64,000 bases of DNA from a bacterium (GCA_037143195.1 JBAWZD010000001.1:80892-144891), one strand, 5' to 3'; positions 3,034-57,160 are shown, counted from the stretch's first letter. Notes: a model not told the origin generated them from the letters alone. Numbers and translations: made by a program.

Positions 3034-3073
3034 GAAAATGCGCGGTCGCCCGAAGGGCGACCGCGCATTTTTG
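3034..3073. terminator. intrinsic terminator downstream of gdhA (13-bp GC-rich stem, loop CGAAG, T-tract)
   Basis: Perfect inverted repeat atgcgcggtcgcc / ggcgaccgcgcat at 3038-3050 and 3056-3068, followed by ttttt and preceded by aaaa. Confidence 0.6.
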
Positions 3074-3573: not shown

Positions 3574-5073
3574 ATGGCACGAGCCAATAAGATTCAGATA
3601 ATCAAATACGCTCCGCCACCACTCGAGCTTCCAGTCTATGGCAAGGTTGATCCGGCGGAGGTATCTTTTATTGGTCGCACCAACTACGTCGCGGCCCTTG
3701 AAGAAAAGAAATTCCTTTTCGGTATCAAACGAGCCGATCGTCGTCGTCATCTCTATATCATCGGAAAGTCAGGTGTTGGAAAATCTAAGCTCCAAGAGCT
3801 TTTTGTGCGTCAGGACATCGCATATGGTCACGGTGTCTGTGTGATTGATCCGCACGGAGAATTCATCGACGACATTCTTGTTTCGATTCCAGAAAACCGT
3901 GTTGAGGACGTCTGTATCATTGACCCATCAGATGTTGATTTTCCTGCGTCATTCAATCCGCTCCAAAACGTTGATCCAACTTTCAAACATCAACTCACAC
4001 AAGGATTGATTGAAGTGCTCGAAAAGCAATTCGGAGCAAACTGGACACCACGTCTTGAGCATGTCTTCCGCTTCACGACACTCGCGCTCCTCGACTATCC
4101 GCACGCAACAATGCGCGGAATGATTTCAATGCTCACCGACCGTAACTACCGTCAAAAAGTGGTTGAATATATCGAAGACGACATGGTCAAGCGCTTCTGG
4201 GCAATCGAATTCGCCGATTGGTCTGAGAAATTCGACACTGACGCTATCATCCCGCTCGTCAACAAACTCGGACAATTTTTGTCTGATCCGATGCTCCGCA
4301 ATATCTTCGGACAAAAAACAAACAAGATCAATTTGGAAGAAATGATGAACACGCAAAAGATTTTGCTCATCAACCTTTCAAAAGGAAAAATTGGTGAAGA
4401 AAACTCATCATTCTTTGGAGCAATGTTTTTGACCAAGATCAAACAAGCCGGAATGGCGCGTGCGAAGATTGACGCGAAAGATCGTAAAGACTTTTATCTC
4501 TACGTGGACGAGTTCCAAAACGTTGTGACGGATACGTTTGAAAACTTGCTTTCTGAGGCCCGTAAATATGCGATCAATCTCACGATGGCACATCAATACG
4601 TCGGACAAATCCCCGAGAAGGTTGAAGCTGCCGTACTCGGAAACGTCGGATCGATTATTTCATTCCGTGTGGGTGGTGACGATGCAGTGAAGCTCAAACC
4701 TGAGTTCGCGCCTATCTTCGATGTCAAAGACATGATCAACCTTGGAGTCGGGGAGTTCTATATCAAAATGACAATCGATGGTGAATCATACGACCCATTT
4801 TCTGCCGAGACACTCAAGGTCCTTCCGCCACCATATCCATCAAACAAAGAACGTATTATCGCATCATCACGACGCAAATTCGCGATTACGGCAGAAGATG
4901 CCAAGCGTTTGATTGCGGAAGAAGAATCCACTATCATTCGTAGCGCACAAGAAAAGGCTGCTATTATGCGAAAGGGTGTGAACGAGGGCGGAAGTGCGGG
5001 AGTGGGCGCGAGCGGAGCGAGCGCCCCACAAGCTCCTGCAAAAGTGGAAGAAATCGCCGAACCATTAATCTAA
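3574..5073 (+). CDS. soluble P-loop NTPase of the FtsK/HerA/TraG(VirD4) superfamily (ATPase-1 of the locus)
   Basis: Walker A IIGKSGVGKS, a DPHGE box (VCVIDPHGEF), Walker B FYLYVDEFQN, and an arginine-finger-like EARKYAINLTMAHQY. No N-terminal transmembrane segments. It is a paralog of 8570..10999. Confidence 0.7.
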   Translation: MARANKIQIIKYAPPPLELPVYGKVDPAEVSFIGRTNYVAALEEKKFLFGIKRADRRRHLYIIGKSGVGKSKLQELFVRQDIAYGHGVCVIDPHGEFIDDILVSIPENRVEDVCIIDPSDVDFPASFNPLQNVDPTFKHQLTQGLIEVLEKQFGANWTPRLEHVFRFTTLALLDYPHATMRGMISMLTDRNYRQKVVEYIEDDMVKRFWAIEFADWSEKFDTDAIIPLVNKLGQFLSDPMLRNIFGQKTNKINLEEMMNTQKILLINLSKGKIGEENSSFFGAMFLTKIKQAGMARAKIDAKDRKDFYLYVDEFQNVVTDTFENLLSEARKYAINLTMAHQYVGQIPEKVEAAVLGNVGSIISFRVGGDDAVKLKPEFAPIFDVKDMINLGVGEFYIKMTIDGESYDPFSAETLKVLPPPYPSNKERIIASSRRKFAITAEDAKRLIAEEESTIIRSAQEKAAIMRKGVNEGGSAGVGASGASAPQAPAKVEEIAEPLI

Positions 5074-5086
5074 CTAATTCAATCGA

Positions 5087-6742
5087 ATGGATACACAAGA
5101 GAAGACATGCGAGTATTGTGGTAATAATTTCAAGCTAAGTAGTGACGAACTCGTAATGTATGGGAAAGTTCAAGTCGAATTTCCAACTATTTGTATTACC
5201 TGTCGCTGGGCACAGCAATTCGCATTTTGGCCATTCGGTAAATTTCGAAAAGGAGTATCCGCTTTGTCGGGACAAAGTTTGATTACGATGCTCCCTGCGA
5301 GTGTTCGATATCCAATTTACACTGCCAAAGAATGGTGGAGCGACGCATGGGATCCAATGGAGTTTGGCCAAGACTATGATTCAACACGATCCTTTTTCGA
5401 TCAACTGAAAGAAGTACAGGAAAAAGTTCCGCGTCCACATCAGCAGGGGACGAATAGTACAGGATGTGATTGGTGTGACGATATTTGGGACTCCAAAAAT
5501 TGTTATCTCTCGCGTTCATGTGCGCGAGCCGAAAATGTCTCATATGGATATCGCGGTTTCGACGTAAAAGATTCTATCGATATTTCGCATGCATTTTCGC
5601 TCGATAATTGTTACGAATGTACATACTCGTTCAATTGCTTTGAGCTTTATTTTTCTCGCAATTGCCGCGATTGTATGAACAGTCGATTTTTGTACGATTG
5701 CCGCAATTGTAGTAATTGTACGATGTGTTGGAATCTTCGTGGCAAACAATATTGTATCGAGAATGTGCAGTACTCAAAAGAAGAGTACTTTGAAAAAGTG
5801 AAGGAATATGACATGAGCTCGTATCAGAATTTACAGCACCTCCAAAAGCGATATACTGATATCCTAAAAACTGAGACTATCCATCGCGAGAATTTTAATA
5901 TCAATACATATACTTCGACGGGCACGTATCTCGCGGACTGTAACAATTGTAAAAATGTATTTGGTTGGGAAGAATCTGAAAACTGTATCAACTGTTTGCG
6001 TGGTCGCGAAGCGAAAGATAGTATCGATTTGCTTGGCACATGGAAAGTAGAATTGTGCGGAAACGATAGTTGTTGCACGGGCGGATACGAACTCCGCTAT
6101 TCGTCATGGTCAGAGGGAAGATATTCTGAATATTTGGATGAATGTATTGAAGTGGAAAATTGTTTTGGGTGTGTTGGTCTTCGCAAGAAAAATTATTGTA
6201 TTCTCAATCGTCAATATACAAAAGAAGAGTACGAAGCGCTAAAGGAGAAAATCATTGCAGATATGCGCGCACGAGGAGAATATGGGCGCTTCTTGCCATA
6301 CTCGATGGGGCTTTGTTCGTACAATCTCACGACTGCTGCGATTTATATGCCCGAAATTTCAAAGGACTATGTACTTGCTCGTGGAGGGTATTGGGATGAT
6401 CAATCAGAAGATGCCGTAGAAGGACTCGCGACGAGCGAACTTCCAGACTCAATCAGAGAAGTCGATGCAACAATATCAAAACAACCGCTTGTGTGTCCGG
6501 TGACCGGATGGCGCTACAATATTTCTGCTGACGAGTTTCAGTTTTTGTCACGAAAAGGAATCGCACTTCCACGAGTCCATTTCGATGTTCGAACCAAGAA
6601 CCGTATGCGAGCGCTTGCGACTCTCCACGGAGAACACTACTCATGTGTTTTTTGTGCCAAAGATTGCATCGGATATTATCCAAAAGATTGGGGCTACACT
6701 CACATCGCATGTGAGGAATGTTACAAGCAAAATATCAATTAG
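5087..6742 (+). CDS. cysteine-rich protein with terminal zinc ribbons and a duplicated internal Cys-repeat module (unknown family)
   Basis: 551 aa with about 50 Cys. N-terminal CEYCG...CITCR and C-terminal CVFCAKDC...CEECY zinc ribbons. Motif WWSDAWDP. Internally repeated NCFGCVGLRKKNYCILNRQYTKEEYE-type units. Starts 14 nt after ATPase-1. Confidence 0.6.
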   Translation: MDTQEKTCEYCGNNFKLSSDELVMYGKVQVEFPTICITCRWAQQFAFWPFGKFRKGVSALSGQSLITMLPASVRYPIYTAKEWWSDAWDPMEFGQDYDSTRSFFDQLKEVQEKVPRPHQQGTNSTGCDWCDDIWDSKNCYLSRSCARAENVSYGYRGFDVKDSIDISHAFSLDNCYECTYSFNCFELYFSRNCRDCMNSRFLYDCRNCSNCTMCWNLRGKQYCIENVQYSKEEYFEKVKEYDMSSYQNLQHLQKRYTDILKTETIHRENFNINTYTSTGTYLADCNNCKNVFGWEESENCINCLRGREAKDSIDLLGTWKVELCGNDSCCTGGYELRYSSWSEGRYSEYLDECIEVENCFGCVGLRKKNYCILNRQYTKEEYEALKEKIIADMRARGEYGRFLPYSMGLCSYNLTTAAIYMPEISKDYVLARGGYWDDQSEDAVEGLATSELPDSIREVDATISKQPLVCPVTGWRYNISADEFQFLSRKGIALPRVHFDVRTKNRMRALATLHGEHYSCVFCAKDCIGYYPKDWGYTHIACEECYKQNIN

Positions 6743-6748
6743 TTCTGT

Positions 6749-8491
6749 ATGGAATCTCGCAATTGCCAAAACTGCAAAACTGATTTCGAGATTGAGCCAG
6801 AAGATTTTTTGTTCTACGAAAAAATCCAAGCCCCACCACCGACGTTTTGTCCCGAGTGTCGCACGGCACGACGTCTTTCGTGGCGCAACGAGATGTCGCT
6901 TTATAAGCGTACATGTGACGCTCCTTCACACGGAGAGCCACTCATTACGATCTATCATCCTGACACAAAATTGCACGTGGTTGATTCAAAATATTGGTGG
7001 AGTGACGCATGGGATCCATTTGATTACGGGGTAGAATACGATTTTTCGAAACCATTTTTTCAGCAATGGATTGAGCTCTATCGACGTATCCCCGTACAAG
7101 GACTTTCCAATTCAAATGCAACGAATAGCGATTATTGTAATATCGCAGAGGAGAGTCGTGATTCATACATGATATCAGCTACATGGAAAGTTGAGCGTAG
7201 TTTTTATTCCAACCGCATCATGGAAGTGAAGGATTCATCTGATTTGTATGTCGTGCATGATTCCGAACTCTGTTACGAAGATATCATTTCTTCTGATTGC
7301 TATCATGTTCTGTATTCTGCGAACTGCAAAAGCTGTGTCGATTCGTATTTCCTTTATGATTGTCATGGATGCACCAACTGTTTTGGATGTACCAATTTGC
7401 GAAACCAATCATACTGTATGTGGAATGAACAATTGGGTAAGGAGGAATACATGCGTAGGATGTCTGAACTCGATATGAGTAGTTATACAGTCGTTGCAGA
7501 CTGCAAGCAACGATTTTCTGAGATGTGCATGCAAGCGATTCATCGTTTCGCAAACCAAATTAAAATTGTAAATTCTACCGGCGACAATCTTGAGGGAGTG
7601 AAAAATACTCGGATGTGTTTTGATGCGAGCGGACAGATTGAAGACTCGAAATTCGTTCACTGGGCAAAGGTGAGTGCAAAGGATGTGTATGATTCTGGTC
7701 CTGGAGTTGGTATGGGTGAAATGATGTACGAGGTTTTTGATACCGGTATTGGGAATTTTCGAAACCTTTTTACGAGTGTTGTGTATAGTTCAAACGAGAT
7801 TGAGTATTCATTCAACTGTCACGGTTCTTCGAATTTGTTCGGCTGTATTGGTATTCGAGGAAAAAATTACTGTATTTTAAATCGACCGTATGAGAAAGAG
7901 GAGTACGAATCGCTTGTACCCAAAATCAAAGAGCATATGATGACGATGCCATATATCGACGCGAAGGGTAGAACGTATCGTTATGGAGAATTTTTCCCTT
8001 CCGAACTTTCACCGTTCGCATACAACGAGACGGTTGCGCAGGATTATTTTCCACTTTCAAAGATCGATGCGGTTGAGCGAGGACATTTGTGGCGAGACAA
8101 GACACTTCAAAATTATGCAGTCACACTATTTGCGAAAGATTTACCGGACTCGCTCTCAATGGTTTCGGATACAATTACAAAAGAAATCATTGGCTGTCTT
8201 CACAACGGAGAGTGTTCGGATCGATGCGCTCGAGCATATCGCATAACAGCTGACGAGCTTAATTTGTACCGCAGAATCGGTGTTCCGCTTCCACGGCTTT
8301 GTTTTGGCTGTCGTCACGACGAGCGTCTTCGAAAGCGTAATCCAATGAAGCTTTGGTCTCGTACCTGCATGTGCACCCAGTCAAACCACGACCACACAGG
8401 CCCATGTCAGGCGACATTCGAGACTGCATATGCACCAGAGCGAAAGGAGATTGTGTACTGTGAATCGTGTTACCAAAAAGAGGTCTTGTAA
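6749..8491 (+). CDS. cysteine-rich protein, paralog of 5087..6742
   Basis: 580 aa with the same architecture. N-terminal ribbon CQNCK...CPECR, motif WWSDAWDP, units CFGCIGIRGKNYCILNRPYEKEEYE, C-terminal ribbon CFGCRHD...CESCYQ. Starts 7 nt after the preceding gene. Confidence 0.6.
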   Translation: MESRNCQNCKTDFEIEPEDFLFYEKIQAPPPTFCPECRTARRLSWRNEMSLYKRTCDAPSHGEPLITIYHPDTKLHVVDSKYWWSDAWDPFDYGVEYDFSKPFFQQWIELYRRIPVQGLSNSNATNSDYCNIAEESRDSYMISATWKVERSFYSNRIMEVKDSSDLYVVHDSELCYEDIISSDCYHVLYSANCKSCVDSYFLYDCHGCTNCFGCTNLRNQSYCMWNEQLGKEEYMRRMSELDMSSYTVVADCKQRFSEMCMQAIHRFANQIKIVNSTGDNLEGVKNTRMCFDASGQIEDSKFVHWAKVSAKDVYDSGPGVGMGEMMYEVFDTGIGNFRNLFTSVVYSSNEIEYSFNCHGSSNLFGCIGIRGKNYCILNRPYEKEEYESLVPKIKEHMMTMPYIDAKGRTYRYGEFFPSELSPFAYNETVAQDYFPLSKIDAVERGHLWRDKTLQNYAVTLFAKDLPDSLSMVSDTITKEIIGCLHNGECSDRCARAYRITADELNLYRRIGVPLPRLCFGCRHDERLRKRNPMKLWSRTCMCTQSNHDHTGPCQATFETAYAPERKEIVYCESCYQKEVL

Positions 8492-8569: not shown

Positions 8570-10999
8570 ATGGATTTCCTCCCCGATGGGGTTGCTTTTA
8601 ATAAAAATATTACCTATCTCGCGAAAACAAATTTTCGCGCTCATGAGCAGGTATTCGGTATCAAGCGTAAGGATCGACGCCAGCATATGTACGTGCTTGG
8701 AAAGTCCGGTTCGGGTAAATCCGTGCTTCTTGGAAACATGATCGTCCAGAATATCTGGAACGGTGAAGGTGTGTGTGTCATCGACCCGCACGGCGAGCTT
8801 GTGGAAAGTGTACTTGCGACTATTCCTGCACACCGCGCGAAAGATGTCATCTATTTCAACCCAGCCGATACTGACTACCACATTGGATTCAATGTGCTTC
8901 AAGTGGACGATCCAAAGTACAAACACCTTGTGGCATCCGGACTTATGGGAATCTTTACCAAGATTTGGGCCAATGCGTGGAGTGCCCGTATGGAATACAT
9001 TTTGAACAATGCGATTCTTGCACTTGCCGATACACCTGGGTCAACACTGCTTGGTATTCCACGTCTCCTCGTGGATAAAGACTACCGTCAGGTGGTCATC
9101 AACAACTTGAAAGATCCAGTGATCAAAGCGTTCTGGATTCATGAATACGAAAACTGGCGTGATCAATATCGTAACGAAGCGATCGCTCCAATTCAAAACA
9201 AAGTCGGACAATTTCTTTCGACCTCTATTGTTCGTAACGTCGTTGGTCAAGCGAAGTCTACGATCGATTTGTTTGAAATGATGAACACGGGAAAAATATT
9301 CCTCGTCAACGTTTCAAAAGGACGTATCGGTGAAGACAACTCTGCACTGCTCGGAGGTATGATCATTACCAAGCTTCAGCTCGCGGCGATGGAACGCGTG
9401 CGTATTCCTGAAGACGAGCGTAAGGATTTCTATCTCTACGTGGACGAATTTCAAAACTTCGTGACCGATGCATTCGCGTCGATTCTTTCTGAGGCACGTA
9501 AATATCGTCTCAACCTCACACTCGCGCACCAATACATTGCTCAGCTGGTGACCAAAGATTCAGAGGCCGTGCGTGATGCCGTATTCGGAAACGTTGGAAC
9601 GATGATTGTGTTTCGTGTTGGTGCGGCAGACGCTGAATTCTTGGAGCAAGAATTTGAACCAGAGTTTATGATTCAAGACATGGTGAATTTGCCGAACTAC
9701 ACAATCTATCTCAAGCTCATGGTGGACGGTGTTACGTCTCGTCCATTTTCTGCAAAGACACTTCCTCCATACAAAATTCCAGAGAACAGTAACGTTGCAC
9801 AAGAAATCATCGAATCATCACGACGATTGTATGCGCGTCCACGCGAAACCGTTGAAAAAGAAATTAATGAATGGAGTGGAATGCTCGTTGGACTTGCCGA
9901 AGAAGGGAAGTTTAAGGCGGTATGTTCGTCGTGTGGCAAAGAAACGATGGTGCCATTTGAACCTGAGGCAGGACGTCCAGTGTATTGTAAGGAATGTATC
10001 GCCAAGATCAAATCGGGTGAAATGAAACCGCTCAAGGGAACGAAACAGGAAAGTCTTCGTCCTCAATCGTATGCTGCCCTTTCGAGTCTCGGAATCGAAT
10101 TCGTTTCTGACGGATCGCCAATGCCGAAGCCGAGTGCTCCGCGGGGCATGCCACCACCAATGGCGCGTCCTCCAATCGGAAAGCCATTCGTGCCAACACG
10201 CATGCCACTTCCAGTGACGAAACCTGTCATGAATGGAGCGAAAGCTTCCTCGCCCGTTGTACCAAAAGCACCAATCAAGGGCGGAGAAAAACCTTCGCTT
10301 GGCGCTATTGCTCGGGCGAATAATGCGCAGGCGGCTCGTGCGACACAAGCTCCTGAAAGTACACAATCTGATCGACCAAAGAATTTCCGAACGCCAAACG
10401 TCGAGCGCAAAGGTCCTGATCATGAAGGATTGCAGTCAATCTTGAAACAAGCACTCGGCAGTGCGATGAAAGAAGAAACACCGGTTGTTCCTCAAACAAC
10501 AAACACCGAGACAGTAAAAAATGGGCCAGACATGGTTGTTGAGAAAAAAGAGGAGCGACCAACGATATCGTTGTCAGCACTCAAGAAGCCTGATTCTGTC
10601 GTGAATGCTGCTCCAAAACTCCAGACCAAAACAGCTTCTGATGAACGTGTCTCGGCATTGCAGAATGCAATCGCACGAGCAGCAAAAATTGAAATCAAAC
10701 CGGAACCAAAAGTCGAACCTACGCCAATCGTTGAGGAAAAGAGCGAAGCTTCTCTCGCTCCAGTTGCTCCGCGGGTAGAGACTACTTTTGTTCCGCGCCC
10801 CGCACCGCCCGTGGTAGAGACTCCAACACCGAAAATAGATGTCACTCCTATACCTCAAGCCCCAAGTACTCCGCCACCACCTGCTGAAAAACAAACACCT
10901 GATGAGGACAAACAACCTGAAGAAAAACCGGCTGACGCAACTGGCAAAAAAGTTCGCGAAATTCCGGAAGATATCTTGAGGAAGGTTCTCAATGAATAA
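8570..10999 (+). CDS. P-loop NTPase paralog (ATPase-2) with a C-terminal zinc ribbon and a long Pro/Ala/Lys-rich disordered tail
   Basis: Walker A VLGKSGSGKS, VCVIDPHGEL, Walker B FYLYVDEFQN and EARKYRLNLTLAHQY are collinear with ATPase-1 over about 440 aa. This is followed by CSSCGK...YCKECIAKIK and roughly 330 aa of low-complexity sequence. Confidence 0.7.
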   Translation: MDFLPDGVAFNKNITYLAKTNFRAHEQVFGIKRKDRRQHMYVLGKSGSGKSVLLGNMIVQNIWNGEGVCVIDPHGELVESVLATIPAHRAKDVIYFNPADTDYHIGFNVLQVDDPKYKHLVASGLMGIFTKIWANAWSARMEYILNNAILALADTPGSTLLGIPRLLVDKDYRQVVINNLKDPVIKAFWIHEYENWRDQYRNEAIAPIQNKVGQFLSTSIVRNVVGQAKSTIDLFEMMNTGKIFLVNVSKGRIGEDNSALLGGMIITKLQLAAMERVRIPEDERKDFYLYVDEFQNFVTDAFASILSEARKYRLNLTLAHQYIAQLVTKDSEAVRDAVFGNVGTMIVFRVGAADAEFLEQEFEPEFMIQDMVNLPNYTIYLKLMVDGVTSRPFSAKTLPPYKIPENSNVAQEIIESSRRLYARPRETVEKEINEWSGMLVGLAEEGKFKAVCSSCGKETMVPFEPEAGRPVYCKECIAKIKSGEMKPLKGTKQESLRPQSYAALSSLGIEFVSDGSPMPKPSAPRGMPPPMARPPIGKPFVPTRMPLPVTKPVMNGAKASSPVVPKAPIKGGEKPSLGAIARANNAQAARATQAPESTQSDRPKNFRTPNVERKGPDHEGLQSILKQALGSAMKEETPVVPQTTNTETVKNGPDMVVEKKEERPTISLSALKKPDSVVNAAPKLQTKTASDERVSALQNAIARAAKIEIKPEPKVEPTPIVEEKSEASLAPVAPRVETTFVPRPAPPVVETPTPKIDVTPIPQAPSTPPPPAEKQTPDEDKQPEEKPADATGKKVREIPEDILRKVLNE

Positions 11000-11027
11000 T
11001 TAGTAATTAGTTTTTTTGTGTTTTCTC

Positions 11028-12563
11028 ATGCGCCATATTTCTATGTGTGTTCTTTTTGGTGTGATGTTTGTGAGTGTGCTATGTTTGGGCGTGAAGTACG
11101 TACAGGCCTCGAATGGTTTAGAAATATCAGAAATAATGTACGACCCGAGTGGTACTGATACGAATCGCGAGTGGATTGAAGTACACAATACAAGTTCTGA
11201 GAGTATTGATCTCGCGGGATATTTTTTGTTGACGGATGGTTTGTCGAGCTCGCATCATGCGCTCGCGCCTGTCGGCGCGAGCGCAATCCCACATGACGGA
11301 TATGCCGTCATCGTTCAGGATGTGAATGCATTCAAAACAGATTATCCAAATTACTCAGGATTGCTGTTTGATTCTAGTTGGACAGGACTTACTGCAAGTA
11401 GTGGTAAAACAATCGCCCTCATTGATACCGCGGGAGTGGTGCTTGATCAAGTCACATATGACCCATCGATCGGTGCGACAAACGATGGCAATTCGTTACA
11501 AAAAAATTCCACCGGCGCATGGGTGAGTGCACCGCCGACACCGAATAGTGCTCTCCAAAATACTGATACGAATTCTCATGCTACGACAGATACAGGAACG
11601 AACGAGCAAACAACAAATCAAAGCGCGAGTAGTGTTTCGGTGCTTGCTCCCGTGAGTTCCGAAAAAAATGTTGAATCAAAAGCGACCGTACCACATATCG
11701 ATTTTTCGATTCCAAAAATCGCAACCACCGGTATTCCGGTTCCAATCGTGTATACCGTTTATGGTGCACAAGGAGATATCCGCTATTACGGGAGTGTTCA
11801 TATTGCGTTTGGAGATGGTTCGGAATATGGTGGTTCGTCAAAGGATGAGACCTCACACATCTATCAATCCGCGGGAACATATATTGTGAAGCTCGACTAT
11901 CGCTCAAATTCGTATATACAAAAACCTGACATGTCTGTGCGAGCGACCGTCGTCGTGTCGAGCCCGAGCGTTGTAGTGTCGCAGGTTACCTCAGATGATT
12001 CAATCGTGCTCGCGAATACGAGCACGAGCGAGGCAGATATTTCGGGGTGGATTCTGACTGCAACCCTCGGTGAAAAGAAAAACGAATTTCACATTCCCGA
12101 TGGTACGATTATTGCACCCAAGGCGATAGTAACAGTACCCGCAAGTGTCGTCGGATTTTTGGGTGACGTTCCGACGATTACACTCTCGTTACCACTGCAT
12201 ATACCGGTTAGTACCTATACAATGAGTATCGAAAACGAAACGGATCAACCCATTGTTGCAGCAACACCAAATCAAAGAGCGACTATCTCAACAATCGATC
12301 AATCAGAAAAATCACCTGAAACAAATGTCGAAATGAATAGTGCGCTCGCGCTCCAACCAACAGAAACAAAAACAGGGAAGTCATTCTTTTGGTATGCGAT
12401 GTTTCTGCTTGTCGTGATTGCGTGTTCTGTTTATTCGTTTCTACGTTTTGTCGGAATAAAAAAACAAGATGGAGATATCCCAATCGTTCGTGAAGCATTC
12501 GCGCAAGAAGTAGAAGGCGAGCATCCGAGTGGTATTGATGATGTGCGGATTGTCGAAGAATAG
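11028..12563 (+). CDS. membrane-anchored extracellular protein with two lamin-tail domains (LTD)
   Basis: Signal-peptide-like N-terminus. LTD signature LEISEIMYDPSGTDTNREWIEVHN...DLAGYFLLTDG, and a second LTD-like segment SIVLANTSTSEADISGWILT. C-terminal TM anchor FFWYAMFLLVVIACSVYSFL. The ATG at 11028 is preferred over the TTG at 11016. Confidence 0.6.
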   Translation: MRHISMCVLFGVMFVSVLCLGVKYVQASNGLEISEIMYDPSGTDTNREWIEVHNTSSESIDLAGYFLLTDGLSSSHHALAPVGASAIPHDGYAVIVQDVNAFKTDYPNYSGLLFDSSWTGLTASSGKTIALIDTAGVVLDQVTYDPSIGATNDGNSLQKNSTGAWVSAPPTPNSALQNTDTNSHATTDTGTNEQTTNQSASSVSVLAPVSSEKNVESKATVPHIDFSIPKIATTGIPVPIVYTVYGAQGDIRYYGSVHIAFGDGSEYGGSSKDETSHIYQSAGTYIVKLDYRSNSYIQKPDMSVRATVVVSSPSVVVSQVTSDDSIVLANTSTSEADISGWILTATLGEKKNEFHIPDGTIIAPKAIVTVPASVVGFLGDVPTITLSLPLHIPVSTYTMSIENETDQPIVAATPNQRATISTIDQSEKSPETNVEMNSALALQPTETKTGKSFFWYAMFLLVVIACSVYSFLRFVGIKKQDGDIPIVREAFAQEVEGEHPSGIDDVRIVEE

Positions 12564-15488: not shown

Positions 15489-15563
15489 TATCGCTCCACA
15501 ATAGATATGCTTCTGACAATGCGTAAAACCTGTTACTATAGGTATGGGTCTCGCAAAAATCAT

Positions 15564-18500
15564 ATGAACACAAGAATACACACACTCTCGCTCGGGCTCC
15601 TTTTTTTGGGCGCACTCTTTTTCCCGTACGCACACGCAGATGCGTTTGCAACCATAAATACCGGTGCAGGATCGACGCCTAACTACTCATCCGTCGCAGA
15701 AAAAAAACTCTACGCAGGAAGCGGGAGTGATGACGTCGTTGTTATCAACGGTGCGGATGATTCCGTGTCTCATATTCCTGTCGGTGGCCCGACAGGTTTT
15801 TCTGTTCCTGTGGGCAACAAAGTCTACATGGAGACCAACGATGGGATTGTGGTCATTAACGCAACGACCGATACAGTCATCACCACGATTCCGGTTCTTG
15901 GATTGAATGGACGAGGTGGAACCTACGGCACTGTCGTGGGAACGCACTTGTACTGGGGTAACATTTCAAACTCGACTGTGTCTGTGATCGATACGACGAC
16001 TGATACCGTCGTCGGAAGTCCGATTTCTGTCGGAGGCGTTCCATTTTCTGCGAGTGTCGTTGGCACTACGATATACCTCAACTGCCAAACTGCGAATACT
16101 GTATATGTCATCGACGCTGATCCACGCTCGACTAACTACAATACTGTCATCGCGACGATTCCGGTAGGAGGAAGTCCATACTACTCGACTGCATTCGGCA
16201 AAAAAGTGTATGTGAGTAACAATAGTGACGCCACGATGTCTGTCATTGACGCAGATCCCGAGTCTGCATCGTACAATCATGTCATCGGAAGTCCGATTCC
16301 AATTGGAAGTGCTCCGTACACTGCGCGATCGATAGGACATAAGATATATGTCAGCGTGTATGGTGACAACGCGGAATCTGTCATTGATACAACAGATACG
16401 ACACCAGAGTTTCCGGGTGGACGATTCATGAAAAAAATTCCTGTCGGTGTCGCACCTGACTACGCACGATTTGTCGGAACGCGATTGTACGTCGCAAACC
16501 AAGGTGATCATAGTGTGTCGGTGATTGATACGGATACAGATACTGTTGTTGGTACAATCAGCGGAACAGGAATTCGATATCCAAGTGTTATCGGAACAAA
16601 AGTGTATGTTCCTGCGCTTGGATACGATTCTGTCACTGTTATCGATACAACCACTGACGTGACAGGGGATTTTCCCCAGCTTGTATCGTTTAGCACAAGC
16701 TCGCCCGATGGAACGTACTCGGCATCGGACACGATTCCTATCACGGCAAACTTTGGTCGTCCACTTCATTCGGGATCAACAATGACTGTTCGACTGAATA
16801 CCGGGGCTTCAGTTGTTTTGAATTCAGTTTCGGGTACGCAATTGTCGGGTACGTATACGGTCGGTGTGAATGATCAAACTCCTGATTTGGCAGTCTCGTC
16901 GATTCTGAGTGCTTCGGTTACTGATACGACAAATCACACACGCATGAATTATGCGATGCCGTATTCTGCAGGCAATTTTTCAGCCGAGAATTCTTTGATT
17001 GAGCGTAATATTGGTGATAGCAAAAATATTGTCATCGGAACATTTTTTTCTATTCCTGTTGGGAATAATCCTTATCAAATTTCTCCAGTCGTGACAGTCG
17101 GTGGTACAAAGTATGTCTATGTTGCCAATCAGGGCGATGGTACGGTGTCAGTCATTCGTTTGTCGGATTCGACAGTTGTTAGCACAATCACTGTTGGTTC
17201 TGAGCCGTATGGAATTGCCTCGGCCACTGTTTCGGGGGTTGTGTATTTATATGTCGCGAACACTGGTTCAAAATCAGTTTCTGTTATCGACACAAGCACC
17301 AACACCGTAGCTGCAACTGTCACTGTTGGATTAAATCCGTACTATGCGACGACTGTCGGAACAAACGTGTATGTCACAAATGGATTATCGAATACCGTCT
17401 CTGTGATTGATGCGAATACAAATACACTTGAGTCGACCGTCGAAGTAGGCTCGTATCCTCGTGGCATCAAAGCCCACGGTACGAATGTGTACGTCGCAAA
17501 CTACGGTGACATCAACAACAATTATGGTGGCAATAACACGATTTCTGTCATCGATGCAAACCCTGCATCTCCGACGTTCAACCAAGTCACGGCAACGATT
17601 GTTTCTCCAGGAGGAAGTGCCGGGCCTCGCGGAGTGACAATGCATACCGATGCAACGCTTGGAGACAAAGTCTATGTTTCTAACTTTCGTTCAGACACAG
17701 TTTCTGTTATCGACGTTAATCCGGCGCATGGGAACACTTACAACAAAATCGTACAAACTATCGCGGTTGGTAAAGGTCCGCGCGGCATGACTATCTTCGG
17801 TGATTATGTTTATGTAGAAAATTTTGACGACGGTACGATATCGATTATTGATACAACTGCATCGGGTGGTCTTGGTGCACTTATCGGATCGATTGATCCT
17901 GCAGGGCATTCACCGTCTGGTATTACCCCTGTGACGGGTGCTGGCGTTGCGATTCCAGGGATCTATTTTTCTCGCTTTCAGGACGGCGTTGTTTCGATTA
18001 TTGATACTGCAACCAATCAAGTCTATCCGCCACATCCAGCGACAACCTATACAATCACTGGACCGAGTACTGGAGTTTTGAATACGGTGTCAGACGTGTT
18101 TTCCGTACGTATGAACGGTACATTTTCTGGTGCCGTCACCATCACTCCGTCGGGCGGGGGAATCACAAATCCAATCGTACTCCATTTCTCAAATTCTCCG
18201 ACGCAATTTTTTACCATTACTCCGAGCGCAGTTGGAACGATATCACTCACTGCTTCAAACGATGGTGGATTACCTGATCCATCATCGCTCACATACCTCG
18301 CATACAATACGATGCCGTTTGTCTCGACCGGTAGTGCGACGGTACTTTCAGACACGTCAGTCCAAATGAGTGGCACGGTGACTGACATTGGTACGAGTAC
18401 TGTCACCACTACAGGATTCCATTATGGTACTGATGCATCGCTTGTGACGTATAGCGATAGTCGTACGATTGATTTGTCTATAACATCTACGCCGACAGGT

Positions 18501-21500
18501 TTCCAACGAAAAAATTCCGGTCTCATTTGTAACACACGATATTACTACCAAGCGTATGCAACGAACACGAGTGGAACGAGCTATGGAACAATACAAAGTT
18601 TTACCACCGACACCTGTGGTAGTGCTTCGCCAACAGTCGCGTGGTACGACACAGCGTGGAGTTATCGCACCAAGCTCACGATCGACCGCACAAAAGTCGC
18701 GAACAGTGATCAAACAAATTTCCCCGTACTTATTCGAAGCACGAATTCTGCATGGAAGAGCGCTGCACACAATGGACATGTCGCGTTTGATACGGGGAAC
18801 GATATCGTTTTTGTTGCTGACGACGGAGTAACAAAACTCAATCACGAAATTGAAAAATACGACCCGACTACAGGGGAATTGATCGCATGGGTGCGTGTTC
18901 CGACGGTCTCATATACTGCAGATACAGACGTATATATGTATTACGGCAATGCTTCTGCGAGTGATCAGTCGAATCCGACTGGAGTGTGGACCAATCACTT
19001 TGGTGCGGTGTACCATTTGTCTGATAGTGGACCTTCGATAGCTTCCGATACGACAGGCAATCACGATGCAACGACGAGCGGGGCTATCACATTTGGACAA
19101 ACAGGCACGATTCATAAAGCCGTGACATTCGATGGCACGATTGGTGGAGATATGGACACGGGATACGTTGTTCCGTCATCGGATATTTCTATCAGCGCGT
19201 GGGCACAGTCATCATCGACGGGAATCACCAATCGCTTGCTTGGCGCGAACGGAACAAACATCATTTGGGGCGCACGAAACGTATCAACAAGTCTCATTGC
19301 TTCAATCAACAGTGCGAGCGGGGGTGGTGGCAGCATTAACATCGACGTACCAAGTCTTGCGAGTGGTTGGCACTATATCGAATTAACAATTGATTCTACG
19401 AACGGAACACAGTTGTATGATGACGGCGTGCTTGTCGGAAGTTCGATATCAAAAAATATTGTTTCGACGAATTCTTTCCATATTGGAAACGATGGAGACG
19501 GAGTACCAACCGACGTGTTTGACGGATCGGTTGATGAAGTCCATTTTGCAACAGTCGCACGATCTGCTGATTGGGTTATGACCGAATATGCCAACCAACA
19601 ATCTACGGCATCATTTTACTCGCAGAGCAGAGAAGAAAACCAAGCATTTTCTATCAATGGTGGCGCGACCACAACTGCATCACCTGCGGTTACGCTCTCA
19701 CTTACGTGTGCGGGGACTCCAGGACCATGCACGATGATGCAGTTTTCTGACGATGGCGTGACGTATTCTTCGTTCGAATCATTTTCGACGACGAAGCTGT
19801 ACACACTTTCAGCAGGCGATGGAACAAAAACAGTCTACGTGAAATTCAAAGACGGTAGTAGCAATCTGAGTACTCCAATCTCGTCGAGTATTTTGCTCGA
19901 TTCAACTCCGCCAACTGGATCAATCAGTATCAATAGTGGAGCACAATCGACGCGTGTGACAAGTGTCACGTTGACACTCTCATGTAGTGACGTCGCAACC
20001 TCCTGCGCTCAAATGCAGTTTTCAAACGACGATACGACATACACATCACTTGAATCATTTTCGACGACGAAGAGTTACACACTGTCATCGGGGCTCGGAA
20101 TCAAAACGGTATATGTGCGATTCACTGATGCGCTTGGCAATGTGAGCCCATCATTTTCTGCAAGTATTGATTACGAGACTGCGGCTCCTGCTGTGGCAAC
20201 GACGTCGCCACTTGTTTTTGTAACCAAAACTTCCGCCGTGCTTTTGGGATCGGTGACGGATATTGGCACGAGCGCTGTTGTCACGACCGGTTTCCATTTT
20301 GGTACTGATCCTGCGCTTGCAACGTCAATCGATGTTCATACCGATGGACAATCAATCAATGCTTCACCGTCGAGCTTTTCTGAAACTCTTTCTGGTCTCA
20401 CGTGTGCGACAACGTATTACTATCGTTCGTACGCAACAAACAGCGACGGTACGGGCAATGGCTCGATTCAAAATTTTGCCACATCTCCGTGCACGAGCAC
20501 TGGTGTGGTTGCAACATGTGGTGATCTTGCCGATATGAGTACCGATCTTTCTGGATCGTATTCGCTTTCACGAGACCTTGATTGTAGTGGCATTAGCTTC
20601 ACTTCGATTGGTACCGCAGTCAATCCGTTTCTTGGTACGTTTGATGGACGCGGACATACGATTACCGGACTCTCAATCACGGGCGTCAGTAATGTAGGAT
20701 TATTTGGATTTGTCCAAGACGCGACAATCAGCAATCTCGGATTGGTGTCAGTCTCGATAACTGGCAAAAACCAAGTTGGTGCACTCGTTGGATCTGCGAC
20801 TGGTACGACGCGTATTACACATTCGTACGCGACGGGAAGCATCACTGGATCTGCAAACGGCGTATCTGTGGGTGGACTTGTTGGATACACCAATGGAACA
20901 GTTTCAATTTCAAAATCATATTCGACTGCTACAATCACAACCGGCTCCGGTTACAGTTCTGCTGGAGGATTGGTAGGACAGGCAGATGGGGCACTTACAA
21001 TCAATGATTCGTATGCACGAGGCAATATAACGAGCAGTAGCGCTGGAGGTTTGGTGGGAAATACCACAGGTACAGTTACCGTTACGAATGCATACGCGAC
21101 AGGCAACATAAACAATCGTACACGCGGAACATTCGCTGGAGGTTTGGTGGCGAGTAGTACAGGTGCGATCACAATTACCAACGCATTTAGTGCAGGGAGT
21201 TTGACTGGCTCGGGTACATTCGGAGGAATCATCGGAAGATACAACGGAAGCACTGGTATCACGAATGCATACTTCACTGATGCGAGCGCAAATAACGCCA
21301 AAGGTGTTCTCGTCGGATCAGTCGGACTACTCAAATCAATCGACCATGCAGTTTATGCACAAGGTGGAGGTAGTCCATGGAATTTTACGACAACATGGGC
21401 ATTTGATGGAGGAATAAATAATGGTTTTCCATTCTTACTTCCTGTTGCCGTGCCAAGTGTGACTGCTGGTAGTGTCTCCGCTATCACGACGAGTACTGCA

Positions 21501-22130
21501 ACACTTGCGGGTTCGATCACGAATATCGGCGGCGTCGCGGTAGCGACGCGTGGGTTCCATTACGGTTTCACGGCTAGCTACGGTTCACTCACGACAGAAA
21601 GTGGCAGCTTCGACACGGGTGACTTCAGCGCTCAATTGACGGGGCTTCTGTGCGCGACACAATATCACCTCGAAGCATACGCCACGAATAGTATCGGCAC
21701 AGGCACAAGCTCACCTGACGTCACATTCACGACGAGTCAGTGTCCTGTCACGAGTCGCGGTCACGTAGATCAAACTTCAGGCACAACGACGACACAAGCG
21801 AACACGACAAAACCACAAATCGGCACACAAACGAGTGGAAGCGGAGCATTCGTTTTCAAAAAAGTACTTCGTGTTGGATCAAAAGGACCTGACGTACTCG
21901 CACTTCAAAAATATCTCAACAGTCAGGGCTTCATCATTGCACAAAAGGGCACAGGATCTATTGGCAAGGAATCAACCTATTTTGGCAAAGCCACAGCCAA
22001 AGCCCTCGCAAAATTCCAAGAGGCACACGCCAAAGAAATTCTCACTCCGTCAGGACTCAAAAAGGGAACAGGTGTTTTGGGCACATCGACAATTGCGTAC
22101 ATAAACAAAACTGCCGTACTCAGCCGATAG
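15564..22130 (+). CDS. giant (2188-aa) secreted cell-surface protein: YVTN beta-propeller repeats, DUF2341-like, LamG/concanavalin-like, repeated Ig/Fn-like modules, GLUG-type repeats and a C-terminal peptidoglycan-binding domain
   Basis: Signal peptide MNTRIHTLSLGLLFLGALFFPYAHA. More than 15 repeats of the form VYV(A/S)N.G..(T/S)VSVID(T/A).TNTV. The AWSYRTKLTID...YMYYGN segment resembles DUF2341. LamG-like VYHLSD...VTFDG. GLFGFVQDATISNLGL resembles GLUG. The C-terminal LRVGSKGPDVLALQKYLNSQGF...FGKATAKALAKFQ fits PG_binding_1. Confidence 0.8.
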   Translation: MNTRIHTLSLGLLFLGALFFPYAHADAFATINTGAGSTPNYSSVAEKKLYAGSGSDDVVVINGADDSVSHIPVGGPTGFSVPVGNKVYMETNDGIVVINATTDTVITTIPVLGLNGRGGTYGTVVGTHLYWGNISNSTVSVIDTTTDTVVGSPISVGGVPFSASVVGTTIYLNCQTANTVYVIDADPRSTNYNTVIATIPVGGSPYYSTAFGKKVYVSNNSDATMSVIDADPESASYNHVIGSPIPIGSAPYTARSIGHKIYVSVYGDNAESVIDTTDTTPEFPGGRFMKKIPVGVAPDYARFVGTRLYVANQGDHSVSVIDTDTDTVVGTISGTGIRYPSVIGTKVYVPALGYDSVTVIDTTTDVTGDFPQLVSFSTSSPDGTYSASDTIPITANFGRPLHSGSTMTVRLNTGASVVLNSVSGTQLSGTYTVGVNDQTPDLAVSSILSASVTDTTNHTRMNYAMPYSAGNFSAENSLIERNIGDSKNIVIGTFFSIPVGNNPYQISPVVTVGGTKYVYVANQGDGTVSVIRLSDSTVVSTITVGSEPYGIASATVSGVVYLYVANTGSKSVSVIDTSTNTVAATVTVGLNPYYATTVGTNVYVTNGLSNTVSVIDANTNTLESTVEVGSYPRGIKAHGTNVYVANYGDINNNYGGNNTISVIDANPASPTFNQVTATIVSPGGSAGPRGVTMHTDATLGDKVYVSNFRSDTVSVIDVNPAHGNTYNKIVQTIAVGKGPRGMTIFGDYVYVENFDDGTISIIDTTASGGLGALIGSIDPAGHSPSGITPVTGAGVAIPGIYFSRFQDGVVSIIDTATNQVYPPHPATTYTITGPSTGVLNTVSDVFSVRMNGTFSGAVTITPSGGGITNPIVLHFSNSPTQFFTITPSAVGTISLTASNDGGLPDPSSLTYLAYNTMPFVSTGSATVLSDTSVQMSGTVTDIGTSTVTTTGFHYGTDASLVTYSDSRTIDLSITSTPTGFQRKNSGLICNTRYYYQAYATNTSGTSYGTIQSFTTDTCGSASPTVAWYDTAWSYRTKLTIDRTKVANSDQTNFPVLIRSTNSAWKSAAHNGHVAFDTGNDIVFVADDGVTKLNHEIEKYDPTTGELIAWVRVPTVSYTADTDVYMYYGNASASDQSNPTGVWTNHFGAVYHLSDSGPSIASDTTGNHDATTSGAITFGQTGTIHKAVTFDGTIGGDMDTGYVVPSSDISISAWAQSSSTGITNRLLGANGTNIIWGARNVSTSLIASINSASGGGGSINIDVPSLASGWHYIELTIDSTNGTQLYDDGVLVGSSISKNIVSTNSFHIGNDGDGVPTDVFDGSVDEVHFATVARSADWVMTEYANQQSTASFYSQSREENQAFSINGGATTTASPAVTLSLTCAGTPGPCTMMQFSDDGVTYSSFESFSTTKLYTLSAGDGTKTVYVKFKDGSSNLSTPISSSILLDSTPPTGSISINSGAQSTRVTSVTLTLSCSDVATSCAQMQFSNDDTTYTSLESFSTTKSYTLSSGLGIKTVYVRFTDALGNVSPSFSASIDYETAAPAVATTSPLVFVTKTSAVLLGSVTDIGTSAVVTTGFHFGTDPALATSIDVHTDGQSINASPSSFSETLSGLTCATTYYYRSYATNSDGTGNGSIQNFATSPCTSTGVVATCGDLADMSTDLSGSYSLSRDLDCSGISFTSIGTAVNPFLGTFDGRGHTITGLSITGVSNVGLFGFVQDATISNLGLVSVSITGKNQVGALVGSATGTTRITHSYATGSITGSANGVSVGGLVGYTNGTVSISKSYSTATITTGSGYSSAGGLVGQADGALTINDSYARGNITSSSAGGLVGNTTGTVTVTNAYATGNINNRTRGTFAGGLVASSTGAITITNAFSAGSLTGSGTFGGIIGRYNGSTGITNAYFTDASANNAKGVLVGSVGLLKSIDHAVYAQGGGSPWNFTTTWAFDGGINNGFPFLLPVAVPSVTAGSVSAITTSTATLAGSITNIGGVAVATRGFHYGFTASYGSLTTESGSFDTGDFSAQLTGLLCATQYHLEAYATNSIGTGTSSPDVTFTTSQCPVTSRGHVDQTSGTTTTQANTTKPQIGTQTSGSGAFVFKKVLRVGSKGPDVLALQKYLNSQGFIIAQKGTGSIGKESTYFGKATAKALAKFQEAHAKEILTPSGLKKGTGVLGTSTIAYINKTAVLSR

Positions 22131-56110: not shown

Positions 56111-57160
56111 ATGGAGCCAACAGAAAAAGAAATTATCGAATCTTTATATAAAGCGATGTGCTCAGCCACAAGTACTGTGAGTGACGCTAAGCGTACTAAT
56201 AATAGTTATTTCAAAAGAAGAGTTTTAGGTTTTAAAGCGGAGATTGAGTTTTCTAAATTTATCGAGGGATATAAAGATATACATTTTTTTGAAGGTGGAA
56301 ACTTTATTTCTAGAAAACTTTCTGGGAAAGTATCGGATAAAAATAAGTTCATATATGTAACACTTGCAAAAAATGAGAGTGAGGATTTTAAGGAAATATA
56401 TTCCGTAATTTCGCAATGGGACGAAGTCGAGAATCTTTTTTATATAAAAATAGATAATAATAGCTGGTCGCAGACAGGGTTTGCGACCAGAAAAAAATTA
56501 AGAAATGGGAAAAGTAAGGATATTGAAGATTCTATTTTGGTTCCCAAATATACTTTTTATAGGTTTAATAAAAACATCGGATCATTTGATATGTGTGAAA
56601 TTCAAAATTTTGACTGTATTTTATCATGGTTTTCCAAGCCAACCAGAAAATCAAGTCTTTTCCCTCTAAGAAAAAAAGATCAATTCGAATACTTTTCAGA
56701 TTATGATGCCAGTGTGTTAAAAAATATTTATGCTAATCGTTATTTTTTAGATGTCATTTTAAGGCAAGCAAGCGGCCGACAAATAATTGATTTAGATGGG
56801 TTTTTAAAAGTGAACGGTCGTTATTTCGTTGTTGAAGTTAAAGAAAAAGATCCAATTAGAAAAAAAGGAAAGAAAGTAGACGACATAAATAATTGGCAGT
56901 TCGGTTGGGATTCAAGAAGAATACTCTGGTATTTGTATTTAAAAGTAAAGTTAAATCTACCTGTTTTGTATAATATTAGAGAAATAAGTAATCAAGAAGA
57001 GAGAACCTTTGTTCAATGGGATTCTATTTTTATAGATGATTTTCTTAAGGGTACTAGCTGGTCAAATAGTAGAAGTGGCGGAGGGGGTGGGGACACCGTA
57101 CTTGCACCTCACTCGTTTTTTAGAAGACTTAGTGACGTTCTTAATGAATTATTAAGATAA
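56111..57160 (+). CDS. hypothetical island protein with a possible PD-(D/E)xK nuclease-like core (IIDLDGF...FVVEVKEKD)
   Basis: 349-aa ORF. The D...D...EVK arrangement is compatible with a restriction-endonuclease-like fold. Gly5 tract near the C-terminus. Confidence 0.4.
   Translation: MEPTEKEIIESLYKAMCSATSTVSDAKRTNNSYFKRRVLGFKAEIEFSKFIEGYKDIHFFEGGNFISRKLSGKVSDKNKFIYVTLAKNESEDFKEIYSVISQWDEVENLFYIKIDNNSWSQTGFATRKKLRNGKSKDIEDSILVPKYTFYRFNKNIGSFDMCEIQNFDCILSWFSKPTRKSSLFPLRKKDQFEYFSDYDASVLKNIYANRYFLDVILRQASGRQIIDLDGFLKVNGRYFVVEVKEKDPIRKKGKKVDDINNWQFGWDSRRILWYLYLKVKLNLPVLYNIREISNQEERTFVQWDSIFIDDFLKGTSWSNSRSGGGGGDTVLAPHSFFRRLSDVLNELLR

Follow-up and report, generated by a model that had tools for sequence, protein, structure and literature searches.

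Type IV coupling proteins (T4CPs; VirD4, TraD and TrwB) are the closest described counterparts of the ATPases considered here, and in Patescibacteria a survey counted 5,713 VirD4-like genes in 2,918 genomes, only 148 of these genes near virB4; its authors state that exaptation of these genes cannot be ruled out (PMC12102498). Among zinc fingers, the nearest described domain is CxxC-x17-CxxC, which binds zinc in purified small proteins of Methanosarcina mazei, as determined by inductively coupled plasma mass spectrometry (PMC12704099). Among repeat proteins we compared the beta-solenoids of the Tenebrio molitor antifreeze protein (AFP; 1EZG), the spruce budworm AFP (1M8N), the ryegrass ice-binding protein (3ULT) and the curli subunit CsgA (8C50/8ENQ), all of which are secreted, disulfide-bonded or amyloid-forming, and without zinc fingers. 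We analysed a bacterial DNA stretch of 64,000 nucleotides (nt) (GCA_037143195.1 JBAWZD010000001.1:80892-144891; hereafter the window), in which the genes of two cysteine-rich proteins, A and B, are flanked by those of two T4CP-like ATPases, ATP1 and ATP2 (Table 1). The parts of the A/B family and its partners are of structural kinds that are already known, namely treble-clef fingers, beta-solenoids and T4CP-type ATPases, and the family itself lies below every curated model threshold and has no solved relative.

We establish below the paralogy of A and B, their architecture, the conservation pattern of their family and its gene linkage. Our preferred functional reading, to which we tentatively give a little less than an even chance, is that A and B are adaptor or scaffold subunits of an uncharacterised soluble ATPase module linked to Hsp70; the architecture and the metal assignment are much more secure than this function. 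No described system matches the combination of soluble T4CP-like ATPases, arrays of paralogues and an Hsp70 operon.

The protein family and its finger heads

A preliminary description of this locus had reported two tandem, same-strand genes for paralogous cysteine-rich proteins, and both open reading frames (ORFs) lie exactly where it placed them. BLASTP aligns A and B at 33% identity across 529 amino acids (aa; E 2e-89), indicating that they are paralogues, and the motif WWSDAWDP, reported as shared, is identical in the two proteins and begins at residue 83 in each. Cysteine makes up 6.5% of A and 5.3% of B against 1.41% over all window ORFs of at least 250 aa, so that the reported enrichment stands and the reported total of about 50 cysteines per protein does not (36 and 31; family range 22-50, median 35). 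Neither protein has a signal peptide, as had been noted, or a membrane segment (maximum 19-residue hydropathy 0.85 in A and 0.58 in B), and their cytoplasmic location holds.

As two old paralogues, A and B belong to an unannotated, very large family of soluble, acidic proteins of about 560 aa (net charge -15 for A and -17 for B). At 90% clustering, more than 4,000 relatives were found with A as the query and more than 6,000 with B, every one with the source name 'hypothetical'; a profile search of 1.84 billion representatives gave 4,386 clusters at 50% identity with E<=0.001 and 1,869 with E<=1e-30, and nearly all of the best matches listed from that search have a full length of 520-600 aa. 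At least 516 relatives were confirmed in GTDB species representatives. Among the best 80 GTDB loci listed, the family is seen only in Patescibacteria, with informative titles naming Nomura-, Lipton-, Harrison-, Jorgensen-, Peri-/Peregrini- and Gracilibacteria and Altimarinota, all of them lineages of that group. Across the class, A-type orthologues share 54-77% identity and keep a fixed chromosomal position.

Profile searches, the check suggested in the preliminary description, matched A and B to no Pfam or NCBIfam model, and no relative was found in PADLOC or the PDB, where sequence and profile searches returned only chance matches to LIM/CRP and BCL11 fingers (E>0.09). A PHROGs scan gave nothing beyond weak matches to phrog_15341, and no description of the family was found in the literature searched. 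A role in anti-phage defence found no support (0 PADLOC matches for A and B, and only weak mad8 and HerA matches for the ATPases). Much of the proteome of Patescibacteria, which account for a large part of bacterial diversity, lacks annotation, and this family makes up one of the large blocks within the unannotated fraction. Because up to 11 copies can be adjacent in genomes of about 1 Mb (the complete chromosomes among the family matches measure 1.2-1.4 Mb), a single locus can occupy 1-2% of coding capacity.

Each protein would run from a first head through a WW(S/G)DxWD linker and two capped solenoids to a second, homologous head. The N-terminal ribbons in the preliminary description are both of the form CxxC-x24-CxxC (C8/C11/C36/C39 in A and C6/C9/C34/C37 in B), and the C-terminal CxxC pairs were likewise found in both proteins; what that first reading missed is that the N-terminal region (7-83) is homologous to the C-terminal one (469-545; hhalign probability 99.8%, E 9.9e-29). 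Judged from its sequence pattern, the head is a double treble-clef finger in which a zf_Tbcl-like CxxC-x24-CxxC is combined with a zf_Tbcl_2-like CxxC-x17-CxxC. The two C-terminal pairs of B that had been joined into one ribbon, CFGC (518-521) and CESC (571-574), are separated by the alignment, which assigns them to finger 3 and finger 4.

We assessed conservation and covariation on an alignment of 229 distinct full-length members drawn from 84 loci (cited by L numbers below). Finger 1 (columns 8/11/36/39) and finger 4 (520/523/542/545) have cysteine in 94-98% of members, with all four residues kept in 206 and 219 of the 229, respectively, and only some members keep finger 2 (58/61/79/82) and finger 3 (470/473/498/501). 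The numbers of members with 0, 1, 2, 3 and 4 cysteines in finger 2 are 58, 81, 1, 1 and 88 (phi about 1.0 between columns 61, 79 and 82), and 95 members show the pattern 1001, in which fingers 2 and 3 are both lost. Finger loss is all-or-none, and the finger therefore behaves as expected of a metal site. Fingers 2 and 3 are lost in A, where the latter is degenerate (C470 and H498 only) and finger 4 is intact (C520, C523, C542 and C545). B has lost finger 2 and has probably retained finger 3 (C483, C489/C493, C518 and C521), and its finger 4 is intact (C540/C542, C553, C571 and C574). Zinc should be held in the heads only, at two intact sites in A and probably three in B. The linker sits directly after the finger 2 position, and its motif is conserved across the family (W83 in 87%, D86 in 93% and W88 in 93% of members).

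Neither A nor B matches PF23477/TIGR04272 or PF13451 at E<=1. Among other members, the best reaches 26.7 bits with PF23477 (zf_Tbcl_2; cut-off 27) at fingers 2 and 4, and two reach 20.7 and 19.3 bits with PF13451 (zf_Tbcl; cut-off 24) at finger 1, the best E values with the two models being 4.5e-6 and 4e-4. The likeness to zf_Tbcl lies in the finger 1 pattern CxxC..F.I...E..FY.K...P.P..C..CR, and that to zf_Tbcl_2 in the CxxC-x17/18-CxxC of fingers 2 and 4 with ..VYC..C (x17 in finger 2 of the family, x18 in finger 4 of A); the family differs from both in fusing the two finger types into a head of about 80 residues, which occurs twice per protein around a solenoid body. The single finger of ATP2 is homologous to family fingers 2 and 4, with hhalign probabilities of 94.1% and 95.4% against the N- and C-terminal heads (E 1.2e-7 and 1.8e-8).

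Cysteines of the repeat modules

The internal duplication of a cysteine-rich module was correctly seen in the preliminary description: residues 131-241 of A align with 280-391 over 110 columns (profile-profile probability 99.9%, E 2.3e-34), and both copies finish in ...C..C.(N/G)LR.K.YC(I/M).N.Q..KEEY, which in the family takes the form of a strand-helix cap, ...C.(G/N)LR.K.YCI.N.QY.KEEY. The repeat unit of 17-20 residues has to be revised, the basic period being 3 residues and the peaks at 9 and 12 being weaker. Repeat cysteines stand at strictly every third position: at lag 3 the Cys frequency has an autocorrelation of 0.65, there are peaks at all multiples of 3, and values at other lags are negative. 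These cysteines are 6-96% conserved among the 229 members and are substituted mainly by Ser, Leu, Val or Ala; in seven candidate quartets, the fraction of members with all four cysteines is what the single frequencies give when multiplied together (mean phi -0.01 to 0.20). The period of 3, the free swapping and the independence of the columns therefore point to core-packing positions in a narrow solenoid and not to obligate Zn(Cys)4 sites.

The repeats are predicted to form two homologous narrow beta-solenoids, with Cys, Ser, Leu, Val or Ala facing the core at every third residue. In the Tenebrio AFP, small residues or cysteines face inward at every third position (TCTxSxxCxxAx). AlphaFold2 (AF2) models have a predicted local distance difference test score (pLDDT) of 83.2 and a predicted template modelling score (pTM) of 0.83 for A, and 81.4 and 0.84 for B; pLDDT is 85-98 in the heads and helices and 56-70 in much of the repeats (60-70 in module 1 of A, mostly 56-67 in module 1 of B), save for residues 311-391 of A. 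Foldseek searches of the models against the PDB and BFVD returned nothing at E<=0.001. Unlike the secreted solenoids to which we compared them, A and B are cytoplasmic and their cysteines are replaceable. A cytoplasmic beta-solenoid with cysteine at every third core position would be structurally unusual, and it may interest protein designers and students of thiol and redox chemistry in anaerobes.

A stand-alone solenoid module is encoded on a viral contig (IMG/VR UViG_3300000121_000017; L084), where a 146-aa ORF (5642-6082) carries the cap ...KKYCILN.QFTKKEY and cysteine at nearly every third residue, without finger heads. The viral ORF matches phrog_15341, a phage family of unknown function, at E 2.4e-12; for A the value is 2e-4, and for B it is 7e-3. 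With the viral module as query, a search for homologues turned up a single fragment, and GenBank phages gave no tblastn match to the module or to A. The same contig bears a second cysteine-rich ORF (7027-8094; 355 aa), unrelated-looking and with no Pfam or PHROG match.

The preliminary description had suggested, as one of two options beside a Cys-stabilised solenoid, that the repeats form a ladder of Zn(Cys)4 sites. On that account they would hold zinc or metal-thiolate sites along their length, and A and B would serve chiefly in metal binding, storage or buffering, which the 4-5 times enrichment in cysteine, the many CxxC pairs and the almost regular cysteines of the viral module might suggest, together with spacings in A that resemble knuckle pairs (C193-x2-C196-x8-C205-x2-C208 and C285-x2-C288-x11-C300-x2-C303). 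The statistics of the repeat quartets argue otherwise: observed and expected all-four fractions are 0.34/0.30, 0.54/0.51, 0.07/0.02 and 0.31/0.31 (mean phi at most 0.20), as for independent columns, whereas the true fingers are all-or-none. Substitution is mostly by Ser, Leu, Val or Ala and not by His or Asp, most CxxC pairs of A have no counterpart in the same columns of B, and a strict period of 3 fits the inward core positions of a narrow solenoid such as the Tenebrio protein. Even with the 75-96% conservation of last-coil cysteines and the low AF2 confidence in the repeats, as could occur with a needed cofactor, counted in its favour, we regard a metal ladder as very improbable.

Two other cysteine motifs were considered and rejected. 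The likeness to the DnaJ CXXCXGXG and ferredoxin CxxCxxCxxxC motifs is superficial (CFGCVG and C205-x2-C208-x2-C211-x2-C214, with dnaJ nearby in relatives): the cysteine spacing in the family is not theirs, there is no PF00684 or Fer4 match at E<=1, and the columns concerned vary independently.

Soluble ATPases and the Hsp70 operon

ATP1 and ATP2 are paralogous, as reported (45% identity across 440 aa), and belong to the FtsK-HerA superfamily. Both exceed the Pfam cut-offs for T4SS-DNA_transf, TrwB_AAD_bind and DUF87 (29, 23.1 and 36.9 bits in ATP1), TraG-D_C is likewise over its cut-off in the flanking ATPases, and Walker A motifs stand at residue 64 of ATP1 and residue 44 of ATP2. ATP1 orthologues are 65-85% identical across the class. 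The two proteins thus have the ATPase domain and Walker A of T4CPs, from which they differ in having no N-terminal transmembrane anchor (maximum 19-residue hydropathy 1.12 and 1.19), in being embedded, in relatives, in a dnaK-dnaJ operon, and, for ATP2, in carrying a zinc finger and a disordered tail. No VirB4, channel or relaxase gene was found among the annotated proteins of the window, part of which is annotated, and no VirB4-sized conserved cluster among the clustered neighbour ORFs of the 84 loci. We rejected the idea of a mobile element or of conjugation, the region being core chromosome and the ATPases anchor-less.

Several variations on these ATPases were observed. Residues ~480-809 of ATP2, past the finger, form a low-complexity Pro/Ala/Lys-rich tail of ~330 aa that ends in a short, conserved-looking acidic/basic helix (…REIPEDILRKVLNE); tail length is highly variable, orthologue ORFs measuring 638-868 aa. 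The array-linked ATPases of Peribacteria (L061/L068/L076) and Gracilibacteria (L038) are of a long-N subtype without a membrane anchor, whose extension of ~300 aa is soluble, conserved among them (…VPQG…FE.FGY.QYTYF…) and without a Pfam match. Paralogues lacking Walker A lie just upstream of ATP1 in four loci (L018 3822-5351, L027 4247-5662, L029 8140-9483 and L070 2244-3593) and may be a degenerate regulatory subunit.

We clustered all neighbouring ORFs of the 84 loci; the T4CP-like ATPase is the sole neighbour family common to several lineages (28 loci). In the forward direction, an ATPase is present in 16 of the 38 family-anchored loci of at least 18 kb; in the reverse direction, ATP1-anchored metagenome loci hold a family gene in 56 of 80 cases over all sizes, and among the 21 of at least 18 kb, a family gene is found in 18, ATP2 in 17 and DnaK in 10. 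Walker-bearing ATPases immediately adjoin a same-strand family gene in 25 of 39 cases, often with gaps of 10 nt or less, and the linkage is also found in Peribacteria and Gracilibacteria with a different ATPase subtype. These counts uphold the functional link to the ATPases that had been proposed, and not the fixed pairing of one cysteine-rich partner with each ATPase, since loci have 1-11 family genes and 0-2 ATPases. Taken as a whole, the observation in the preliminary description was partly confirmed and is largely real, and its interpretation is partly supported.

In many Paceibacteria, the gene order is rplM-rpsI-grpE-[A]-[B...]-(PaaX_M regulator, opposite strand)-dnaK-ATP2-[B]-ATP1-dnaJ. 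The window genome has its ATP1-A-B-ATP2 block outside the Hsp70 locus, and there is no dnaK or grpE in the 64 kb. Elsewhere, tandem arrays bring together up to 10-11 family genes within 21 kb (L059, L060, L065 and L077), whose paralogues are old (median identity ~40%). Two side observations concern the dnaK locus of relatives. In ~30 loci, a 172-aa PaaX_M-domain protein is encoded on the opposite strand at the place expected for hrcA (for example L004 13879-14397, minus strand), and in L055 a PaaX_M-type gene adjoins ATP1; in L139, genes for a ClpP protease and a MazF/PemK-like toxin (5407-5940 and 6693-7151) lie between dnaK and ATP2.

Under our preferred reading, A and B would work jointly with the flanking ATPases, which would be soluble VirD4/TraD-like hexamers in physical contact with them, and the two finger heads would tether a client of some kind, or the ATPase itself. 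The module may serve a stress or protein-handling role coupled to Hsp70, and not conjugation; the tie to Hsp70 is drawn because the gene set is embedded in grpE-dnaK-dnaJ in many Paceibacteria. The linkage gives a concrete context to the ~5,700 orphan VirD4-like ATPases, and connecting the family to these and to grpE-dnaK-dnaJ turns two separate unknowns into one testable hypothesis. A stronger form, which we think unlikely but worth stating, is that the solenoid proteins and anchor-less ATPases constitute an unrecognised, Patescibacteria-specific cytoplasmic machine that works with Hsp70. The hexameric FtsK/HerA-type motor would then be a protein remodeller or unfoldase, and the 1-11 paralogues would be interchangeable two-headed zinc-finger adaptors that set its client range; if true, this would be a second, independent route to the work done elsewhere by Clp/Hsp100, and it would account for the orphan T4CP homologues that number in the thousands across these genomes.

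The ATPase matches allow a different reading, in which basic heads bind DNA or RNA and pass it to T4CP-like motors, possibly for processing imported DNA in nucleotide-scavenging organisms. TrwB_AAD_bind, T4SS-DNA_transf and the CedD DNA-translocating ATPase are all matched by the flanking ATPases, and the heads are mildly basic on an acidic body (family median net charge +3 and +4, one helix carrying +4 to +5), although this charge is modest and the N-terminal head of B stands at -2. A possible transcription-related role has been proposed for the CxxC-x17-CxxC proteins of M. mazei (PMC12704099), and dependence on DNA uptake is documented for CPR bacteria (PMC6744442). However, neighbour clustering revealed no nuclease, helicase or competence gene conserved beside the family, whose conserved context is the Hsp70 operon and not comEC or pilus genes, and we judge a nucleic-acid machine distinctly unlikely.

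Alternatively, A and B could be cargo that the T4CP-like ATPases export to the surface or to host cells, with Hsp70 keeping them unfolded; outside the cell, disulfides would lock the solenoid as in insect antifreeze proteins, and the arrays would represent host-interaction variants. T4CPs do recruit protein substrates (PMC12857230), and Patescibacteria are host-dependent. The copy number of the family varies from 1 to 11, thioredoxin and DsbB genes lie near one locus (L001), and structurally known narrow cysteine-rich solenoids are extracellular and disulfide-bonded (1EZG). This export would have to proceed without a signal peptide on A or B, without a membrane anchor by which the ATPases could dock to a channel, and without virB4 or channel genes, none of which were seen in the partly annotated window or in the four loci with listed genes. 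A set of four conserved zinc fingers is typical of proteins inside the cell, A-type orthologues at a fixed position with 54-77% identity are unlike fast-evolving effectors, and array paralogues as old as these show no recent diversification. We therefore rate export as improbable.

Several points weigh against the adaptor reading itself. No ATPase lies within 10 kb in 22 of the 38 large family-anchored loci, and long arrays often stand alone (L001, L060, L065 and L077). Family-anchored loci are ascertained by the family, so that a rough estimate of the chance adjacency of any gene is ~30%. The grpE/dnaK context is limited to Paceibacteria-type loci and may be a single ancestral arrangement and not repeated selection, and a search of the window for the CIRCE heat-shock operator gave 0 matches. 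As for the fold, the solenoid call leans mainly on residues 311-391 in module 2 of A, solenoid 1 of A and B and solenoid 2 of B having a pLDDT of only 56-70. One metal or redox site per module might exist in the last coil, because the last-coil cysteines are highly conserved (75-94% at 205/208/211/214, with C208 at 88% and C211 at 94%, and 96% at C362).

The ATPase-free arrays also bear on the idea that A and B act independently of the ATPases, for example as a self-assembling scaffold or as cytoskeleton-like filaments built from several paralogues, adjacency being inherited synteny. Divergent paralogues maintained for long in one array would suit hetero-oligomers, and many arrays have no ATPase within 10 kb. 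Distant classes nonetheless show the ATPase linkage again, with other ATPase subtypes and gene orders, the family shares a finger type with ATP2, and conserved helices cap each solenoid, an arrangement that normally prevents end-to-end stacking; we accord this independence a low probability.

Features and other genes of the window

ATP1, A, B and ATP2 lie on one strand of a 451-kb MAG contig and are densely packed, with intergenic gaps of 13, 6 and 78 nt (Table 1). A GC-rich hairpin flanked by A and T runs lies directly 3' of a gene identified, by inspection of its translation, as encoding glutamate dehydrogenase, and it would probably set the upstream end of the transcription unit that carries the four genes. 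In a scan of the window for consensus promoters and terminators, counts were not above those in shuffled controls.

Table 1. Coordinates of the hairpin, the four genes and the domains of their products within the window
Feature	Coordinates	Strand	Evidence or remarks
Inverted repeat, probable terminator	3035..3071		Perfect 17-nt arms (100% complementary), GC-rich, 3-nt loop
ATP1, 499-aa soluble VirD4/TraD/TrwB-like P-loop ATPase	3574..5073	+	Pfam models, orthologues
Protein A, 551 aa, 36 Cys	5087..6742	+	ORF; NCBI MEI8129941.1, 'hypothetical protein'
A finger 1 (C8, C11, C36, C39), zf_Tbcl-like treble clef	5108..5203	+	Family alignment; Cys 94-97% conserved
A WWSDAWDP motif, residues 83-90	5333..5356	+	Sequence, family alignment
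A predicted solenoid module 1 and KEEY cap helix, residues 131-241	5477..5809	+	Alignment, hhalign
A predicted solenoid module 2 and KEEY cap helix, residues 280-391	5924..6259	+	Homologous to module 1
A C-terminal double-finger head, residues 469-546	6491..6724	+	Homologous to N-terminal head, E 9.9e-29
Protein B, 580 aa, 31 Cys	6749..8491	+	ORF; NCBI MEI8129942.1, 'hypothetical protein'
B finger 1 (C6, C9, C34, C37)	6764..6859	+	Sequence, alignment
B WWSDAWDP motif, residues 83-90	6995..7018	+	Sequence
B predicted solenoid module 1 and cap helix, residues 131-241	7139..7471	+	Alignment to A
B predicted solenoid module 2 and cap helix, residues 279-395	7583..7933	+	Alignment to A
B C-terminal double-finger head	8192..8473	+	Sequence, alignment
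ATP2, 809-aa soluble VirD4/TraD-like ATPase	8570..10999	+	Pfam/NCBIfam models
ATP2 CxxC-x17-CxxC finger, residues 448-480	9911..10009	+	PF23477 zf_Tbcl_2 55.7 bits, TIGR04272 59.5 bits

The remainder of the window is ordinary chromosome (LeuRS, MurJ, LepA, Ddl, TopA, RelA/SpoT, YchF and DnaX) of even GC content (~0.46). Between 54000 and 58000, GC drops to 0.34-0.39; this segment, which contains an ORF without a Pfam match (56111-57160), may have been recently acquired. Sixteen nt past ATP2 and on the same strand begins a gene (11016-12563) for a lamin-tail domain protein (85.8 bits) with hydrophobic ends and a weak, sub-threshold PKD match, which may be co-transcribed with ATP2. A 2,207-aa ORF (15507-22130), hydrophobic at its N-terminus, carries dozens of 'VSVID(T/A)' repeats; by eye it resembles a YVTN-type beta-propeller, and it is probably a giant surface protein. 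Finally, a 796-aa protein (35677-38067) appears to be a tandem fusion: the D-Ala-D-Ala ligase unit is present in full twice over, with the N domain and the C domain of that enzyme each matched in two stretches.

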